Shown one piece after another: positions 31,573 to 45,811 of a DNA stretch of 64,000 nt (position 1 is the first letter of the stretch; the number at the start of each line of letters is the position of its first letter). Below the pieces are notes generated by a model. The model ran no database searches, had not been told where the DNA came from, and saw only the letters and a program-made list of their open reading frames with translations. A program made the translations under genes and the position numbers. Source of the stretch: a virus; IMG/VR virus record IMGVR_UViG_3300027741_000040, positions 31,800 through 95,799 of that record; one strand, given 5' to 3'.

Positions 31573-31905
31573 TCATTTATCTTTAGAGTCTTTACCCGAC
31601 CACTTATACCATCCTCTATTTGGAAGATATGTTCCATCATCATCTTTTCTCTTTGGAAAGAGAGTCCCTCCCTTTTTGTGTTGTCCAAAAGAAAGTACGG
31701 CTCCACAATCATTACATTTTAATTCATAATAATCGTTGCCTTCCACATTTCTGCAAACATACTTTATGCTGGTCTTATTGCACAAACCACATTTGTCCTC
31801 ACTAAAGATTTCTTGAATTGTAGCGAGTTCTTTAAAGACTTCTTTTTGTCCTGTTCCTTCTAATTCAAACTGTAATTTATCATTAGCTCTGTATAGAATT
31901 TTCAT
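31573..31905 (-). CDS. Zinc-ribbon hypothetical protein
   Basis: CGLC...CNDC; ATG 31905 lies 2 nt after the upstream stop and is preferred over 31917. Confidence 0.65.
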   Translation of the reverse strand: MKILYRANDKLQFELEGTGQKEVFKELATIQEIFSEDKCGLCNKTSIKYVCRNVEGNDYYELKCNDCGAVLSFGQHKKGGTLFPKRKDDDGTYLPNRGWYKWSGKDSKDK

Positions 31906-39638: not shown

Positions 39639-39666
39639 ATTATAGCTCAGTGAGCACCCGTGTCAA
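39639..39666 (-). promoter_or_regulatory. Consensus sigma70-type promoter for ssb, with palindrome in the spacer
   Basis: TTGACA (39666-39661), 16-nt spacer, TATAAT (39644-39639); spacer contains GCTCA-C-TGAGC. Confidence 0.8.
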
Positions 39667-41288
39667 GAAACGGGCAGAAAACATTTTTCTACAACAAAGC
39701 TATCTTTTGCCTTGCTTCTGCTACCTAAAAAAACCAGAATATTACCATTAAATAGATGGTCTTTATATTTAGCAAATTGGTCAGGAAAGAAGATCACGGA
39801 GTCTAGCATTCCAAATTGATCTTCTAAAGTTATGAATGCCATTTCTTGACCAGGATTTTTGCCTGTTTTAGTTTTTGTTATACTAATATTTGAGATTTCT
39901 GCTGCCATAATAATATTACTAGATAAACTAGAACTTTTAAATTCTTTGCAATTAGTATTAGACATAGTTATGTCATACGAGTCTAATCTAGAACATGTGA
40001 TGGCTACTCCTAGGAGAGAACTCTCAGAATCCGATAACCATTCGATCTTATCTAGTAAGGAATACGGGGGCTTATCTAATGAGCCAATTAGGCCTTGGAT
40101 TACAGTCTTCCTATTTTTGTTTATCTTTTCAGATAATAATAACGAAAAAATATCTCTAATTTTTTTGGAAGGAAATGTTTTAGCTAAATTTGTAAAGTGT
40201 TCTGATTCTTTATTGCTTAAACTGCTCACTACTCCATATTCAAATAACATTTCTGTTCTTGTTTTTTTAAAATAGTCTAATGCCCCACAAGATATTAGAG
40301 CTTTGCTTGCAGTGGAATTGATCTTTAATAAGATTTGAGACAGAGTTTGCGACCATGATAGTGTTTTTAAGTCTAATGTTTCTGATATTGACAGTATTTT
40401 ATTATATACTGACTTTCCAACCCCCTTAATATCTGTTAATCCAAAATAGATCGCTTTATCTTTGAGAATAAATAATTCATTCAAATTTCTTAAATCGGGA
40501 ATATGAACAATAATATCCATCTCTGTAGCATTTCGTACTAATTCTTTAATTTCCTGCTGTGGATCTATTTTATCCTTTGCGTACCTTAAGTATGATGCAA
40601 AGAAGATCTTTGGAAAATGGGCCTTTGTGTATGCAGATAAGTAGGCGTTCATTGCATATGAAACACCATGGGACTTATTAAAAGAATATCTCTGAGACTT
40701 TTCAATCCAACTAAAAATAGCCTCAGCTTCTTCTCTCGTTACAATTTTAAATTTATCTGTGCCTTCTAGAAATTTTTGTTTTATTTTAGCCATTTCTTCT
40801 GGTTTCTTTTTCCCAATAGCCTTTCTTAAAGCGTCTGCTTCTTGCAGATTAAATCCCGCTAGATCTTTGGCTATCGACATGGCCTGTTCTTGATAAATCA
40901 TTTCTCCATATGTGGACCCTAAACATTTTTCTAAAGAGGGATGGAAATAATCTACAGATTCCAACCCATTCTTTTTGTCTATATAGTGATTAGATACGCT
41001 TTTCCCTTCTCTAAAAGCTTCAAGACAACCCGGCCTAAGAATACTAATCAATCCAGATAGCTGCTCAATATTTTCTGGCTTAAGTTTTTTAGACATAGTT
41101 TGTCCAAGTCTTGACTCAAGTTGAAAACATCCTTTGGTATTACCAGAAGAAATCAGATCCCAAGTTCTTGAGCATTCAAGATTCAAGCTCTCTAACTTTG
41201 GAGAGAATAATATTTTGGGAAATTGAATATCTTGTTTATCCAAAACTGGAAATTTACAACCACAATCAAATGTATAATATTCAGACAT
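39663..41288 (-). CDS. dnaE: DNA polymerase III alpha, C-terminal part (fingers, HhH, OB)
   Basis: GCFQLES, RPG, YQEQ, ADALRKAIGKK, YSFNKSH, FGLTDIKGVG, MAFITLED. Confidence 0.9.
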   Translation of the reverse strand: MSEYYTFDCGCKFPVLDKQDIQFPKILFSPKLESLNLECSRTWDLISSGNTKGCFQLESRLGQTMSKKLKPENIEQLSGLISILRPGCLEAFREGKSVSNHYIDKKNGLESVDYFHPSLEKCLGSTYGEMIYQEQAMSIAKDLAGFNLQEADALRKAIGKKKPEEMAKIKQKFLEGTDKFKIVTREEAEAIFSWIEKSQRYSFNKSHGVSYAMNAYLSAYTKAHFPKIFFASYLRYAKDKIDPQQEIKELVRNATEMDIIVHIPDLRNLNELFILKDKAIYFGLTDIKGVGKSVYNKILSISETLDLKTLSWSQTLSQILLKINSTASKALISCGALDYFKKTRTEMLFEYGVVSSLSNKESEHFTNLAKTFPSKKIRDIFSLLLSEKINKNRKTVIQGLIGSLDKPPYSLLDKIEWLSDSESSLLGVAITCSRLDSYDITMSNTNCKEFKSSSLSSNIIMAAEISNISITKTKTGKNPGQEMAFITLEDQFGMLDSVIFFPDQFAKYKDHLFNGNILVFLGSRSKAKDSFVVEKCFLPVS

Positions 41289-41982
41289 TGGCTTTGTTAA
41301 AAGATCCTTTGAATTTTACTTTTGAGCTAACATTGCGATGGAGCTTCATAAATCTTATTAGTATTTCTGCTGTGTCTCTAACATCCTTTAAAGCATCATG
41401 AGACCCTTCCGTGGAAATACCAAAATATCCTCTTAGGTTATCTAATGTATAATTCTTAAGTTCGTTATTTCCTTCGAACCAGTAGAAGATCATATTCATT
41501 AAATCTATGACATCTCTTGGATAGAATAAGCTACTTCTTTTTTCTTTATTGAGATTATTGTATTTAACACTTAATCTTTCTATGATTCTCATATCGTATC
41601 TGTTGATATTGTACCCTGCAGCAATAGGTGCTGTAAAACAAGATTTCTTATCAGACCTAATATGATACATTTCTAAATAAGAGACAAACATTTTCCATCC
41701 CTGGTCTTGCTTTTGGTGTCCTTTCCATTGGTCTAAAATATCTTGTTTAGAGCAACCTCTAACCTTGGAATGAAAATCCAGAACATCACTATCTGCATAG
41801 GCATATTCAGAATCCTTTTCTAAAAGTTCTGGTCTCATATTAATGTTAAATTCAGAATCTTGCACTATCTCAAGCCTAAAGGGGTCAATGATAAGTGCGG
41901 CAATTTGTACGGGACTACAGATATCGGGATTAATTCCATCTGTCTCGAAATCAAACACACAAATTTTTTGAGAATTAGCCAT
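41281..41982 (-). CDS. DEDDh 3'-5' exonuclease (DnaQ/epsilon-like)
   Basis: ExoI FDFETDG, ExoII GYNINRYD, ExoIII HDALKD. Confidence 0.88.
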   Translation of the reverse strand: MANSQKICVFDFETDGINPDICSPVQIAALIIDPFRLEIVQDSEFNINMRPELLEKDSEYAYADSDVLDFHSKVRGCSKQDILDQWKGHQKQDQGWKMFVSYLEMYHIRSDKKSCFTAPIAAGYNINRYDMRIIERLSVKYNNLNKEKRSSLFYPRDVIDLMNMIFYWFEGNNELKNYTLDNLRGYFGISTEGSHDALKDVRDTAEILIRFMKLHRNVSSKVKFKGSFNKANV

Positions 41983-42154
41983 TTACCTCTACCAGAGTAT
42001 TGCCGGGGAAAAAAGTTTTATTACTAGCGTTGCCAGCAGTCTCGGCATTAATAGACCTGCAACAGCTTACCTTGACCTCATCAACCTTCTTATATTCAAC
42101 ACCATTCACTACAAATGTGGCATTGACAGGAACATCGCTTAATAGTTTTTGCAT
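41975..42154 (-). CDS. Small hypothetical protein (59 aa), below the ORF-track cutoff
   Basis: MQKLLSDVPVNATFVVNGVEYKKVDEVKVSCCRSINAETAGNASNKTFFPGNTLVEVNG; AAGGAG SD; fills the gap between dnaE-N and the exonuclease. Confidence 0.75.
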   Translation of the reverse strand: MQKLLSDVPVNATFVVNGVEYKKVDEVKVSCCRSINAETAGNASNKTFFPGNTLVEVNG

Positions 42155-42155
42155 A

Positions 42156-44041
42156 TTATTCTCCTTTTTCTAAAATGTCTGTTATGGTCATAATCTTATC
42201 TAACATTGCAACACCCAAAATATCAAATTTTATTACACCCAAATCCTCAAGATCCTGCATCTCCATTCCGGCGATAAGTTGATCGTTTTTTGTATCGTAA
42301 ATCATCGGACAAACATCGGATAAGTCCTGAATACTAATAGCAATTCCTGCTGCATGTTTTGATTGATTAGACTTTACTCCCTCTAAACGTATTGCCTGTT
42401 CAAATCTTTTAGCTAGAGGACCAGACAGCTCATTATCATCATTAATATAGCACCAGTCTTTGAGTTTGTCAACATTGTTTTCTAACGCCCACCTGATAAT
42501 CGATGCTTCACCGGTTTCTTCTTTCATTTCTTGAAGTTCATCTGCTATTTTGGCTTCATCTGGTATAAACTTTGTGATTTTATTCATCTCGTCAAATGAT
42601 ATATTACCATATACTCTTAAGACTTCTTTAAGTGCGCCTCTGCCTTTCATCGTATTATACGTAATCATTTGTGATACTTTATTGTATCCGTATTTATCCT
42701 TAATATACTTGATAATCTCTTCTCTTTTATTTATTGGCACATCGACATCAATATCTGGCATGGAAATTCTATCAGACGTATTGCGTCCAGTATTATAGAA
42801 TCTCTCAAATATTAAATCATATTTTATAGGATCTATAGAAGTGATCCCAATTAAATACGAAACCAGACATCCTGCCGCACTTCCTCTCCCTGGACCAGGA
42901 AGCCAATTATTCTCTCTAACATAACGCAGAATATCTTGGACAATTAAAAAATAGCTAGAAAGACCAGCGCCTTGTAACACTTCTAGTTCATGTTTGATCC
43001 TTTCTGTGTATTGTGGCTGTTTGTCTTCTGGTATATGGTTCTTGATCTTTTCTCTCCATCCACGACGACATAGTTCTCTTAAGTATTCATCTGGATTAAG
43101 ATTATTTGGACATTCAAACTTAGGTAACATGGGCTTGTGTAGAATATCATAACTTTCACACATACTATCAACCAAATTAGTATTATCTATTTCTTCTTCT
43201 GTGTGAAGTTCTCTAATTTCTTGTGGAGACAAGATGTAATATTTATCAGATCTGAAGAAACAATCCATCATTATATCTTCATTATTTAGAATCTTTTTAT
43301 TAATATCGACTAAAGTTGTCTTTAGATTGTTGCATAATAGTATCCTTTGATCAACAGCGTCTTCTTGAGCACAATAATGTGCATCTGGGGTACATATGAC
43401 TTTGGTGTGGGTATTCTGGCCCAAGTCTCTTATAATCTTAGTCAAAGCTATTTGTTGTGGCAGATATTCTTGGTCCATAAGCTGGGCCTCTAGAAAGAAA
43501 TTATCCTTACCAAATATATCTTTCATATGAGAGATAAATTCTGTGCCAATCTTATTGGCGTTATCTGGATCTTCCATAAGCTTATAAGCCAGTGTGGATC
43601 CTAAATGTCCACAGAATCCTAAAATATTACCATCTAAATATCGAGCTAATTTATCAAAACTTAATCTTGGTTTATGATAAAAGTTGTCTTTATTATTAGA
43701 TTCTGAAACTAAACTAACTAGGTTATGCCAACCTTGTTTATTCTTAGCCAGGACTATGAAGTGTGTTAGTTTTGCATTTTCCTTAGTCTTAATTGTTGAA
43801 TCATCATTACTAATATATAGCTCGCAACCCAGAATAGGCTTAATATTCTTAGCTTTGAGTGATTTATAAAACTGCACTGCTCCAGAAATTGATCCATGAT
43901 CTGTTATTGCACAAGATCTTAGTCCTAAAGCTTGACATCTAGCAGCTATTTGAGCTGGCTTACTTAGTCCATCCAAAAGTGAATAATGAGATTCACCTAA
44001 GAATGGACATGCAGAGGAGTATATACCTTTGTCATGTCCAT
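42156..44041 (-). CDS. dnaE: DNA polymerase III alpha, N-terminal part (PHP, palm, thumb); reading frame interrupted after codon 14
   Basis: TDHG, GCE, DAHY, GRGSAAG, PDIDVD, HAAG, KFDILG. The missing N-terminus MDMTKVYTPLHVHS is encoded at 44041-44000 behind AAGGAG and joins HYSLLDG if 43999-43989 is skipped (624 aa). Confidence 0.88.
43989..44041 (-). other. Candidate translational bypass element in dnaE (5' hairpin, UCU take-off, UAG, UCU landing)
   Basis: mRNA CAU GUC CAU UCU UAG GUGAA UCU CAU UAU UCA; 9-bp inverted repeat 44041-44033/44011-44003. Confidence 0.65.
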
Positions 44042-44054
44042 CTATTTTGTCTCC

Positions 44055-45095
44055 TTATGTTGTGCCTGGGGCTTTGTACTTACCGAATGTATGACCAGAG
44101 TGCTTATATAGGTCTACGACATTATTGATCCCATAAAGTTCTACATCGTGCTTAACCTGTTCGCACTTACTCATTATTGATCCGTTGGAACATGTCTGAT
44201 TATCCCTGTATTCTACTATAGCTGGTATTGATGAATTTTCAAATGTGGTTTTACCAAAATGACACAATTTATTACACATCCAGCTTTTGTGTAGTTTTGG
44301 CCTCTTGGTGTTCTTAATAATTTCAAATTTATCTCTAAGCATATCTTCTGTTTTACTTAAATCAGAATCATCAAAACAAATCGAAAATGGACCACCATCA
44401 TTGATAAAGTATATCGAAAAAATTATGTGCTGAATATGTGGAAACAAATGCTTAATAGCGTAATGATATATTCTAAGTTGCGGATCACTCTCTAGTTTCT
44501 CTTGCGTTTTTTCTTTTCCCGTAGCCCAATCTAGCCTTCGTCCCGTTTTCCAGTCGATGACTTCTATGGTATTATCGTCAACAAGAGTGATCAAGTCAAT
44601 AGTGCCTTTTAAAGCTAAATTTCCGCTCAGCTTACCTTCTGATGTATCAAAAGAATATTTTGCCCAATTTTTCTTTATTTCAAAATCAAAGTGCTGTTCT
44701 GGACACAATATATTTCTATTGCGAGGATCAAACATACCATTATTAAATTCTATTGCTTTATATACCCAACTATGACAGTCTTTATAGTCTTTTGGCGACC
44801 ATTTATGATGACTGGAGCTATTAGAGTAGTATGTATATACTTGTTCAATAATTGTATTTAGATTATATTGATTGATGTCTAGTTTGCCAACAATATCGTC
44901 TACAATAGTATCTTGTTTATTCTGTTGGGCCTGTTTGATAACGGCTAGTATTTCTAATACTTTATGAACTATTGTTCCTTTGTCTGCCTTTTGTCCAGAC
45001 GGCCCTCTCCATCCGAGTACGTACTCAAGGAAATATTGTTGTTCACAAAGAGAATGGGTATTAAAAGAACTGCTACGAAAATAAGTTATGATAAT
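44055..45095 (-). CDS. Cas4/AddB-like PD-(D/E)XK nuclease with probable Fe-S cluster; probable ATT start
   Basis: Frame open from 45095 through ATG 44735 without stops, adding (M)IITYFRSSSFNTHSLCEQQYFLEYVLG...KGTIVHKVLE. Core GTIDL...VIDWKTG, QLRIY, C-terminal CNKLC; GAGGAG 8 nt before ATT. Confidence 0.8.
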   Translation of the reverse strand: MIITYFRSSSFNTHSLCEQQYFLEYVLGWRGPSGQKADKGTIVHKVLEILAVIKQAQQNKQDTIVDDIVGKLDINQYNLNTIIEQVYTYYSNSSSHHKWSPKDYKDCHSWVYKAIEFNNGMFDPRNRNILCPEQHFDFEIKKNWAKYSFDTSEGKLSGNLALKGTIDLITLVDDNTIEVIDWKTGRRLDWATGKEKTQEKLESDPQLRIYHYAIKHLFPHIQHIIFSIYFINDGGPFSICFDDSDLSKTEDMLRDKFEIIKNTKRPKLHKSWMCNKLCHFGKTTFENSSIPAIVEYRDNQTCSNGSIMSKCEQVKHDVELYGINNVVDLYKHSGHTFGKYKAPGTT

Positions 45096-45811
45096 TTTAG
45101 TATCTCCTCTATGATTTTTTTAATGTGTGCGGACTGCTCATAAAGAGAATATTCAGAATTATCTATAACATAGTCAAAATTTGACCAGTCGTATTTGTCT
45201 TTATCTAGAATAGACTCACTAATATGATCTGAGTGGAATGGGTCCCTAGTCAGTCTGATTACTTTTCCTCCATTAGACTTTATTGCCTCGATTTCGTTTG
45301 GAAATCTACAATCTGTTACTATCGATACTGGAACGTTTTCTCTAACAATTTTCTTTAAAGTAGAGTCTACCCAAACATTCATATGCATGGATCTAAAAAT
45401 ATCAGTACCGATAAATTGCATCACTTCTCTGGCGCTCAAATTTTTATTTTCCCATTTTAGATGAGTGGTTTGATTTTTATCTTCATCAGAACCATAACAT
45501 TGTTTATAGTCTAATCCTAGTATATTTATACATATGTCTTTCTTAAGAGTGTCTGCAAAATTATAGATCTTAATAGACTTATTTAGCGTGTCGAAACACC
45601 TGGACATTATGAAATCATTTGATAGTGTATTATGTGGATCAAAAATTCCCTCATACTCTTTTTCTCCATATAAGTCTGAGACAATAATTTCTCCAGATTC
45701 GCTAAGAAAAATCTTTTCTGCAATATCAAGCTGAGACATGAAGAATGAGTAGATTAAATTCCCAACAGTACTTTTGCCAGACTGTTTTCTCCCAGAGACA
45801 CCAATAATCAT
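45086..45811 (-). CDS. Deoxynucleoside monophosphate kinase
   Basis: IIGVSGRKQSGKST, FADTLK, REVMQFIGTD, TDCRFPNE, HISE, IDN. Confidence 0.88.
   Translation of the reverse strand: MIIGVSGRKQSGKSTVGNLIYSFFMSQLDIAEKIFLSESGEIIVSDLYGEKEYEGIFDPHNTLSNDFIMSRCFDTLNKSIKIYNFADTLKKDICINILGLDYKQCYGSDEDKNQTTHLKWENKNLSAREVMQFIGTDIFRSMHMNVWVDSTLKKIVRENVPVSIVTDCRFPNEIEAIKSNGGKVIRLTRDPFHSDHISESILDKDKYDWSNFDYVIDNSEYSLYEQSAHIKKIIEEILKLS

Follow-up and report, generated by a model that had tools for sequence, protein, structure and literature searches.

A covarying hairpin over the start codon of an interrupted phage dnaE gene as a candidate element of a proposed short translational bypass

Introduction

The DNA considered here (hereafter the window) is a stretch of 64,000 nucleotides (nt), the right-hand 64 kb of a 95.8-kb phage contig from freshwater metagenomes (IMG/VR record IMGVR_UViG_3300027741_000040, positions 31,800 to 95,799). 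Its minus strand carries a dnaE-like gene whose frame is closed by a stop codon after only 14 codons, the rest of the gene lying in a different frame. The locus therefore raises the question of how one protein could be made from the two frames, and what function a hairpin (hairpin 1) might have which covers the start codon and ends immediately before the interruption. The hairpin was pointed out in an initial annotation made from the letters alone, which compared it with the structure that lies 5' of the site of take-off in bacteriophage T4 gene 60, where ribosomes bypass a part of the messenger RNA. As detailed below, hairpin 1 is real, it is kept by compensating mutations and it is missing from the uninterrupted versions of the gene, and for these reasons it most likely belongs to a miniature signal for ribosome hopping.

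Results

The interrupted dnaE start and hairpin 1 in the window

The downstream frame, read from position 43991, runs ...TCT CAT TAT TCA... and encodes (S)HYSLLDG, and skipping TAGGTGAA from UCU to UCU gives PLHVHS-HYSLLDG, as encoded by uninterrupted relatives. In the Pfam PHP profile, L-H-V-H takes positions 2–5 and the next Ser position 6, and the downstream match of the window begins at position 6, the Ser of the putative landing codon. Both flanks of the gap match the profile contiguously.

On the minus strand, ATGGACATG (44041-44033) pairs perfectly with its reverse complement CATGTCCAT (44011-44003), with 21 nt between the two. RNA folding returned the nine outer pairs, a G-U pair 44042/44002 and the inner CA/UG and AGG/CCU pairs, the stem of nine ending one base before UCU (44002-44000), so that the pairing originally described was confirmed by both the sequence and the fold. 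The folding energy of hairpin 1 is -19.2 kcal/mol, compared with -7.3 ± 2.4 kcal/mol for 200 dinucleotide shuffles (z = -4.9), none of which (0/200) folded as well. In the AT-rich window there are 110 inverted repeats (9-nt seeds within 40 nt), most of which are AT-rich palindromes, and because of this a 9-nt repeat alone is unremarkable and an observation in a single sequence is not decisive. It is the position of hairpin 1, together with its conservation and covariation in relatives, that lifts it above chance.

Positions 43988-44048 are covered by contigs from four independent public runs with 0 indels, and many independent IMG/VR and JGI contigs show the same architecture, which excludes an assembly or sequencing artefact. 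The early view that a random insertion or a sequencing error was unlikely is thus borne out by the four indel-free runs and by the 60 interrupted variants described in the next section.

A population variant is present at position 44018 (coding T to G, ACT to ACG, synonymous Thr) in public runs and in loci L002/L003, and through it the inner helix of hairpin 1 gains a G-C pair (-20.5 vs. -19.2 kcal/mol).

Interrupted and uninterrupted dnaE genes in related phages

A protein-guided scan yielded 38 related viral loci falling into two classes, and pattern scans of viral and metagenome contigs yielded 60 distinct interrupted dnaE starts with 124 contig occurrences in freshwater phage metagenomes. 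The covariation figures given hereafter were obtained with alignment A1, which holds 49 distinct interrupted elements, and the uninterrupted genes used for comparison comprise 16 distinct sequences. Uninterrupted genes start with M-x-x-Y-x-P-L-H-V-H-S-H-Y-S, and their ATG overlaps the upstream stop codon as ATGA. Interrupted genes possess a strong Shine-Dalgarno (SD) sequence, which is kept among the relatives in alignment A1; their N-terminus is longer by two or three codons (M-D/G-M/V), and HVHS is followed by a gap containing a stop codon. Their frame of 606–613 amino acids (aa) is intact, with its Pfam domains, in 40 interrupted loci. On the DnaE-N tree the interrupted and uninterrupted genes are interspersed, with 6 changes between the two states, the deepest clade is interrupted, and the gap and the stem always occur together.

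In the deepest interrupted clade (L075:3724-3819, L115:13883-13980 and L146:4423-4521) the resume residue is Glu and the landing triplets are unusual, namely UGA (7 nt), UUU (9 nt) and GCU (10 nt). Hairpin 1 is still there, with energies of -13 to -17 kcal/mol.

Conservation and covariation of hairpin 1

The same 9-bp stem abuts the Ser codon with zero spacing in all 60 interrupted elements, the loop varying from 15 to 21 nt. Over the 49 aligned elements the nine outer pairs are 98.2% paired, and the compensatory changes that the initial annotation had proposed to look for were found both in outer pair 7 and in the inner helix. Pair 7 is G-C in 29 elements, A-U in 17 and G-U in 3, with no A-C at all; the switch exchanges Met and Val on one side and is a synonymous His codon change on the other. 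This pair has changed at least 6 times on the DnaE-N tree, and all five independent contrasts are compensated (p = 0.0625, the minimum attainable from five contrasts). G-U is tolerated throughout the stem (19 cells) and A-C never occurs, indicating that the pairing acts in the sense-strand RNA and not in DNA. The inner helix covaries as well, CCUCUN occurring with AGAGG, CCUUUR with AAAGG or AAGG, and CCGCUN with AGCG. Its 3' strand, coding for Pro-Leu, shows only synonymous change (4 Pro and 5 Leu codons), which indicates that the leader is translated and that its sequence matters, and its 5' strand changes amino acids.

Codon choice within the arms is restricted in the same manner. Interrupted elements encode Val by GTC in 48/49 cases and the second His by CAT in 49/49, whereas GTA, GTG, GTT, TGT and CAC are used freely at these positions in uninterrupted genes. 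Residues 2–3 of the interrupted genes are limited to Asp/Gly and Met/Val, exactly those whose codons pair with GUC and CAU/CAC, suggesting that the extra codons are there to build the stem. The same had been supposed of the Met-Asp-Met start of the window, and it agrees with the uninterrupted homologues starting 2–3 codons later and having no stem.

The comparison of genes with and without the insert had been named beforehand as a check that could refute the reading of hairpin 1, and it did not do so. The stem is absent from 16/16 uninterrupted genes, and no viral contig combining the two arms with an uninterrupted HVHS-x-Y/F-S was found in a scan of 2.9 million viral contigs. The region from the start codon to the Ser codon folds with -19.2 ± 1.9 kcal/mol in interrupted genes (n = 49, mean z = -5.4) and with only -2.8 ± 2.0 kcal/mol in uninterrupted ones (n = 16, mean z = -0.1). 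Hairpin 1 is thus a selected RNA structure tied to the gap.

A tenth pair with the first base of the take-off codon is formed in 33/49 elements. Extension of the stem into this codon was rejected as a conserved feature, its three positions being paired in 33/49, 11/49 and 32/49.

The gap and hairpin 2

Hop lengths, measured between the take-off codon and the codon that precedes the resume codon, are 7 nt in one element, 8 in three, 9 in 14, 10 in 22, 11 in 19 and 12 in one. The hops therefore fall in all three frame relations; the length has changed 12 times on the tree, and close relatives differ by 1–2-nt gap indels. A stop codon follows the take-off codon in 60/60 elements (TAA in 29, TAG in 28, TGA in 3). 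Take-off and landing have the same codon in 15/60, as in the window (UCU/UCU), and synonymous Ser codons in another 20/60. In the leader, Y-x-P-L-H-V-H-S is maintained by 4 Pro and 5 Leu codons, all synonymous. Judging from these sequences, the gap is not read in triplets.

A second covarying hairpin (hairpin 2) always has the gap as its 5' arm, and in it every gap base, except sometimes the U of the stop codon, pairs with the Tyr-Ser-Leu codons. In the window this arm consists of the last two stop bases and the gap. Hairpin 2 is 97.7% paired and shows compensatory changes, its core variants being GUG/CAC, AGA/UCU, CGA/UCG, GGA/UCU and UGA/UCA, and in two TGA-GTG elements the Leu codon is CTC in place of CTT. 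The landing codon is always found where the 5' arm passes into the loop, and the loop contains the resume codon.

Several other explanations of the gap were rejected. GTG following the stop could have been a start codon or an SD-like landing element, but it is replaced by AGA, CGA, GGA or TG with compensating Ser-Leu changes, so the GTG of the window is rather a stem base. A His-to-His hop (CAU to CAU/CAC) fits the window, but it fails in variants with ATG or GAA as the resume codon and would delete two conserved residues. Reassignment of the stop codon was dismissed as well, since all three stops occur at the site and the frames differ.

As to the origin of the module, the extra start codons and the gap are each the reverse complement of adjoining older coding sequence (the HVH codons and the Ser-Leu codons, respectively), and they look like two small inverted duplications, produced, for example, by template switching.

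Gene layout of the dnaE locus

The coordinates of the features are listed in Table 1. The dnaE gene is split and occupies 39663-44041 on the minus strand of the window: the N part (PHP and palm) ends at 42156 and is followed by a 59-aa open reading frame (ORF) at 41975-42154, a DEDDh/RNase_T exonuclease at 41281-41982 and the C part (fingers, HhH, OB) at 39663-41288. The five-gene dnaE order is common to interrupted and uninterrupted relatives.

Table 1 Features of the interrupted dnaE start in the window
Feature	Position	Strand	Remarks
Upstream nuclease stop TAA (44057-55) overlapping strong SD sequence AAGGAG (44056-51)	44051..44057	-	9 nt before ATG
dnaE-like gene start ATG	44041	-	First 14 codons: MDMTKVYTPLHVHS; 14th codon TCT 44002-44000, then TAG 43999-97
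Hairpin 1, 5' arm: start codon and two extra codons (Met-Asp-Met)	44033..44041	-	In 60/60 distinct interrupted and 0/16 distinct uninterrupted elements
Hairpin 1, apical part with inner helix	44012..44032	-	44031-30 pairs with 44013-12; 44028-26 pairs with 44017-15
Hairpin 1, 3' arm: His-Val-His codons of PHP motif I	44003..44011	-	
Putative take-off codon UCU (Ser), directly 3' of the stem	44000..44002	-	TCT, TCC or TCA in 60/60; PHP profile position 6
Non-coding gap: UAG stop and GUGAA, TAGGTGAA	43992..43999	-	8 nt; in relatives, stop and 1–6 nt
Hairpin 2	43977..43998	-	5' arm 43998-91, loop 43990-85, 3' arm 43984-77 (Tyr-Ser-Leu codons)
Putative landing codon UCU	43989..43991	-	11 nt past the take-off codon; resume codon CAU 43988-86
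dnaE-N body (PHP and Pol III alpha palm)	42156..43991	-	-1 frame relative to the start codon

The upstream gene, a PD-(D/E)XK nuclease at 44055-45109 on the minus strand, has a frame open for 354 codons, of which the first ATG yields only 226 aa. Its counterparts in relatives, recognised by the C-terminal YKAPG motif, are 347–372 aa long and end in the same motif, so a non-standard codon 5' of ATG 44735 is probably where the gene starts. This same nuclease, with YKAPG at its end, also precedes dnaE in most interrupted loci. A homing endonuclease is not consistently found beside the gap, and the gene order is the same in interrupted and uninterrupted loci. L011 alone contains an extra 240-aa ORF (2245-2967) with weak helix-turn-helix matches directly upstream of the dnaE start; this locus also has a LAGLIDADG ORF within dnaE-C (L011:6657-7574). 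Extra ORFs of this type, which possibly reflect mobile-element traffic at the dnaE locus, are absent from the window.

A blastn search of the region against deposited phage genomes gave no match, and a tRNA scan of the window, where a special tRNA-Ser was sought, found no tRNA gene. Among the public sequencing runs listed as containing the stretch, none is an RNA run.

Discussion

Taken together, these patterns suggest, with a probability of about 60%, that hairpin 1 serves as the 5' part of a compact module for programmed translational bypassing (a hop) at the phage dnaE start. The bypass itself, a pushing or ratchet role of the hairpin and its control of initiation are what we infer from them. 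Ribosomes would initiate at AUG 44041 and translate 14 codons, until UCU 44002-00 is reached and UAG occupies the A site. Termination would be avoided by a slide of 11 nt, during which peptidyl-tRNA-Ser is kept; after re-pairing at UCU 43991-89, translation would go on from CAU, which would restore the PHP motif PLHVHS-HYSLLDG. When take-off occurs, the 3' arm would have its nine bases at positions -9 to -1 inside the ribosome, so that hairpin 1 would be open, and the 5' arm, i.e. the start codon, and the apical helix would already be outside. Sliding would then free the 3'-arm bases to zip onto the start-codon arm, which would bias the movement forward and block the return to the take-off codon. 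The stem would close completely only after about 9–12 nt of movement, a distance near the 7–12-nt hops of the family. Once closed, the hairpin would moreover delay the next initiation, since the start codon forms its 5' arm, and in this way keep that arm clear of a trailing ribosome.

It is possible, although we propose it only tentatively, that the module is minimal and self-contained, in which case the start-codon/pre-take-off hairpin and the second hairpin armed by the gap would move the ribosome by 7–12 nt without a long nascent-peptide signal, a cognate landing codon or a nuclease cassette. The direction would come from refolding of the mRNA at the exit channel, and the distance from the 5' arm of hairpin 2.

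Several observations weigh against a bypass module with a working hairpin 1. The landing codon is Ser in only 35/60 elements, being ACU, GCU, GCC, UUU or UGA in the other 25/60, which implies that re-pairing tolerates a mismatch in the first or second position or that the landing place is set otherwise. For hop length, no correlation was seen with how far the stem reaches into the take-off codon (rho = -0.12, p = 0.38) or with the loop length (rho = 0.07), and the idea of a hop length set by the zipping stem was rejected; the constant stem length leaves little variation for testing such a link. The nascent chain at take-off has only 13–15 residues, far below the signal of gene 60; the conserved YxPLHVHS is also the PHP motif, which makes a separate nascent-peptide signal indistinguishable. 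The stem and the gap are 40 nt apart, and their co-occurrence could partly reflect linkage in one recombining cassette; linkage could account for their co-transfer but not for the maintained covariation. A hairpin sequestering the AUG could be selected and needs no role in a bypass. Finally, gene 60 homologues show poor conservation of their 5' stem-loop.

In an explanation that we regard as unlikely, the bypass is real and hairpin 1 has no mechanical role in it, acting only in the control of initiation or ribosome spacing by hiding the AUG so that few ribosomes enter an inefficiently decoded gene. This fits the 5' arm being the start codon itself behind a strong exposed SD sequence, the reduction of initiation to be expected from a stem of -17 to -19 kcal/mol over the AUG, the independence of hop length from stem geometry and the lack of conservation of the 5' stem-loop in gene 60 homologues. 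It leaves unexplained why the spacing between the 3' arm and the take-off codon is zero in 60/60 elements while the loop (15–21 nt) and the gap vary, and why uninterrupted homologues, which own the same HVH codons available for pairing with the AUG, never use them. It is very unlikely that no bypass takes place and the 14 codons are a leader peptide, with DnaE arising from termination-reinitiation or from independent downstream initiation and the hairpins serving translational coupling. An in-frame GTG or ATG does lie next to the gap in many hop-8, -9, -10 and -12 variants, and the resume codon is ATG in several of them. In the hop-11 class, however, the first in-frame start of the second ORF is TTG, the second Leu of SLLDG (15/18), or codon 44 in one case; the HYSL codons upstream of it stay coding through synonymous change, which makes reinitiation unlikely. 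Moreover, the leader keeps Y-x-P-L-H-V-H-S, the first PHP motif, by means of synonymous codons, and the GTG after the stop, swapped for AGA, CGA or GGA with compensation, behaves as a stem base.

Conventional recoding specific to each lineage, with the hairpin as a stimulator, is more doubtful still. It would comprise a -1 frameshift for hops of 8 or 11 nt, a +1 frameshift for hops of 7 or 10 nt and stop readthrough for hops of 9 or 12 nt. The -1 frame is indeed open across the gap of the window, and the in-frame variants require only readthrough. Stimulators of frameshifting are known from the 3' side of the shift site and not from its 5' side. CAU-UCU-UAG contains no slippery heptamer, and in some 10-nt gaps (L048, L057, L071) TGA closes the +1 frame, which excludes a simple +1 shift there. 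The dnaE element has neither the slippery site nor the single fixed frame change expected of programmed -1/+1 frameshifting with a 3' stimulator, all three frame relations being present. The 1–2-nt gap indels between close relatives, with 12 length changes on the tree, would be intolerable for a decoded sequence, and the products would gain 2–4 residues inside a motif which is contiguous in all uninterrupted homologues. A single short-hop mechanism covers all the variants, whereas frameshifting and readthrough would require three. We give practically no credence to a pseudogene, an assembly error or a DNA-level inverted repeat left as a scar by recombination or a mobile element without any RNA function. 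Although 9-nt inverted repeats are common in the AT-rich window, the same letters without indels were obtained in four independent runs, the frame of 606–613 aa with its Pfam domains is intact in 40 interrupted loci, the tolerance of G-U but never of A-C indicates sense-strand RNA, and no nuclease gene is consistently adjacent.

The closest parallel to the proposed dnaE hop is T4 gene 60. In gene 60 one protein is read from two frames, as would be the case in dnaE; in both, a stop codon directly follows the take-off codon and is included in a stem-loop, and there is a further stem-loop 5' of the site of take-off, which in gene 60 is held to refold behind the ribosome and to stop back-sliding or drive movement. 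The dnaE element has several features of gene 60-type bypassing: two protein-conserved frames split by an undecodable gap, a stop-containing stem-loop and a covarying 5' stem-loop. Hairpin 2 is similar to the stop-containing A-site take-off stem-loop in gene 60, the bases of which are not scanned by the anticodon. As to the 5' structure, upstream mRNA refolding was described as preventing back-sliding (Samatova 2014 and Chen 2015, as summarised in PMC7026636), pairing of the exiting mRNA was proposed as a forward driver of bypassing (Wills, Parsawar and Atkins, bioRxiv 10.1101/2024.12.09.627546), and gene 60 requires spacing between ribosomes so that the 5' stem-loop can form (bioRxiv 10.1101/2024.12.09.627546). 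The sliding model proposed above for dnaE fits the first two of these ideas. Due to the poor conservation of the 5' stem-loop in gene 60 homologues the analogy is weaker than the initial annotation implied, the 5' stem being the best-conserved element in dnaE. There are other differences. The dnaE hop is 7–12 nt and not 50 nt; its 5' stem includes the start codon and lies 0 nt from the take-off site, as opposed to 9 nt; its first ORF has 13–15 codons instead of 46, which makes a long nascent-peptide signal impossible. The dnaE landing codon is often only near-cognate, the 3' arm of its stop-containing hairpin is coding, and no homing-endonuclease cassette adjoins the gap, unlike in the MobA/gene 60 mobile cassette. 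The host gene is dnaE and not a topoisomerase gene, and no sequence homology was seen.

Shorter inserts are proposed to be bypassed in the terminase gene of Streptomyces phage phiHau3, where two 10-nt frame-disrupting inserts were described (Smith 2013, as presented in PMC10732093), the junction peptide being detected by mass spectrometry in E. coli with a UAA variant (PMC10732093). The likeness consists in inserts of about 10 nt in an essential phage gene whose flanks are contiguous in relatives; a nearby stem-loop and an internal SD sequence were proposed as stimulators in phiHau3. There, however, the trigger is the rare sense codon UUA tied to host development, while the A-site codon in dnaE is always a stop (60/60); about 3 genes are known, compared with 60 distinct dnaE variants; the site is not at the gene start; and no covariation-supported structure has been reported for phiHau3. 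In the unprogrammed stop-hopping of E. coli, where 9 nt specify one amino acid, peptidyl-tRNA likewise detaches before a stop codon and re-pairs a few bases downstream, but this occurs at a low level and without stimulatory structures, whereas the dnaE site is flanked by two conserved hairpins and an essential replication gene would depend on the event. The mitochondrial 'byp' elements of Magnusiomyces (Lang 2014, as cited in PMC7026636) share take-off and landing codons and a take-off stem-loop in natural genes; in the account given there, they are 27–55 nt long, mobile and multiple per gene, with no start-codon hairpin. In full-text literature searches, bypassing was described for T4 gene 60 with its topoisomerase homologues, the 10-nt inserts of the phiHau3 terminase gene and the mitochondria of yeasts, and no account came up of dnaE or of a start-codon hairpin.

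Hairpin 1 is best regarded as belonging, as its 5' part, to a new short-hop variant of programmed bypassing, in which mechanical and regulatory roles of this hairpin are plausible. What is known of efficient programmed bypassing rests almost wholly on T4 gene 60, where the role of the 5' stem-loop is still debated. With 60 natural variants of a cassette of about 100 nt, the dnaE family makes the idea of exiting-mRNA pairing testable apart from nascent-peptide effects and long-range scanning. The element also matters for annotation, in which such essential polymerase genes are called truncated or frameshifted and their true N-terminus, with two metal-binding histidines of the PHP domain, is missed.

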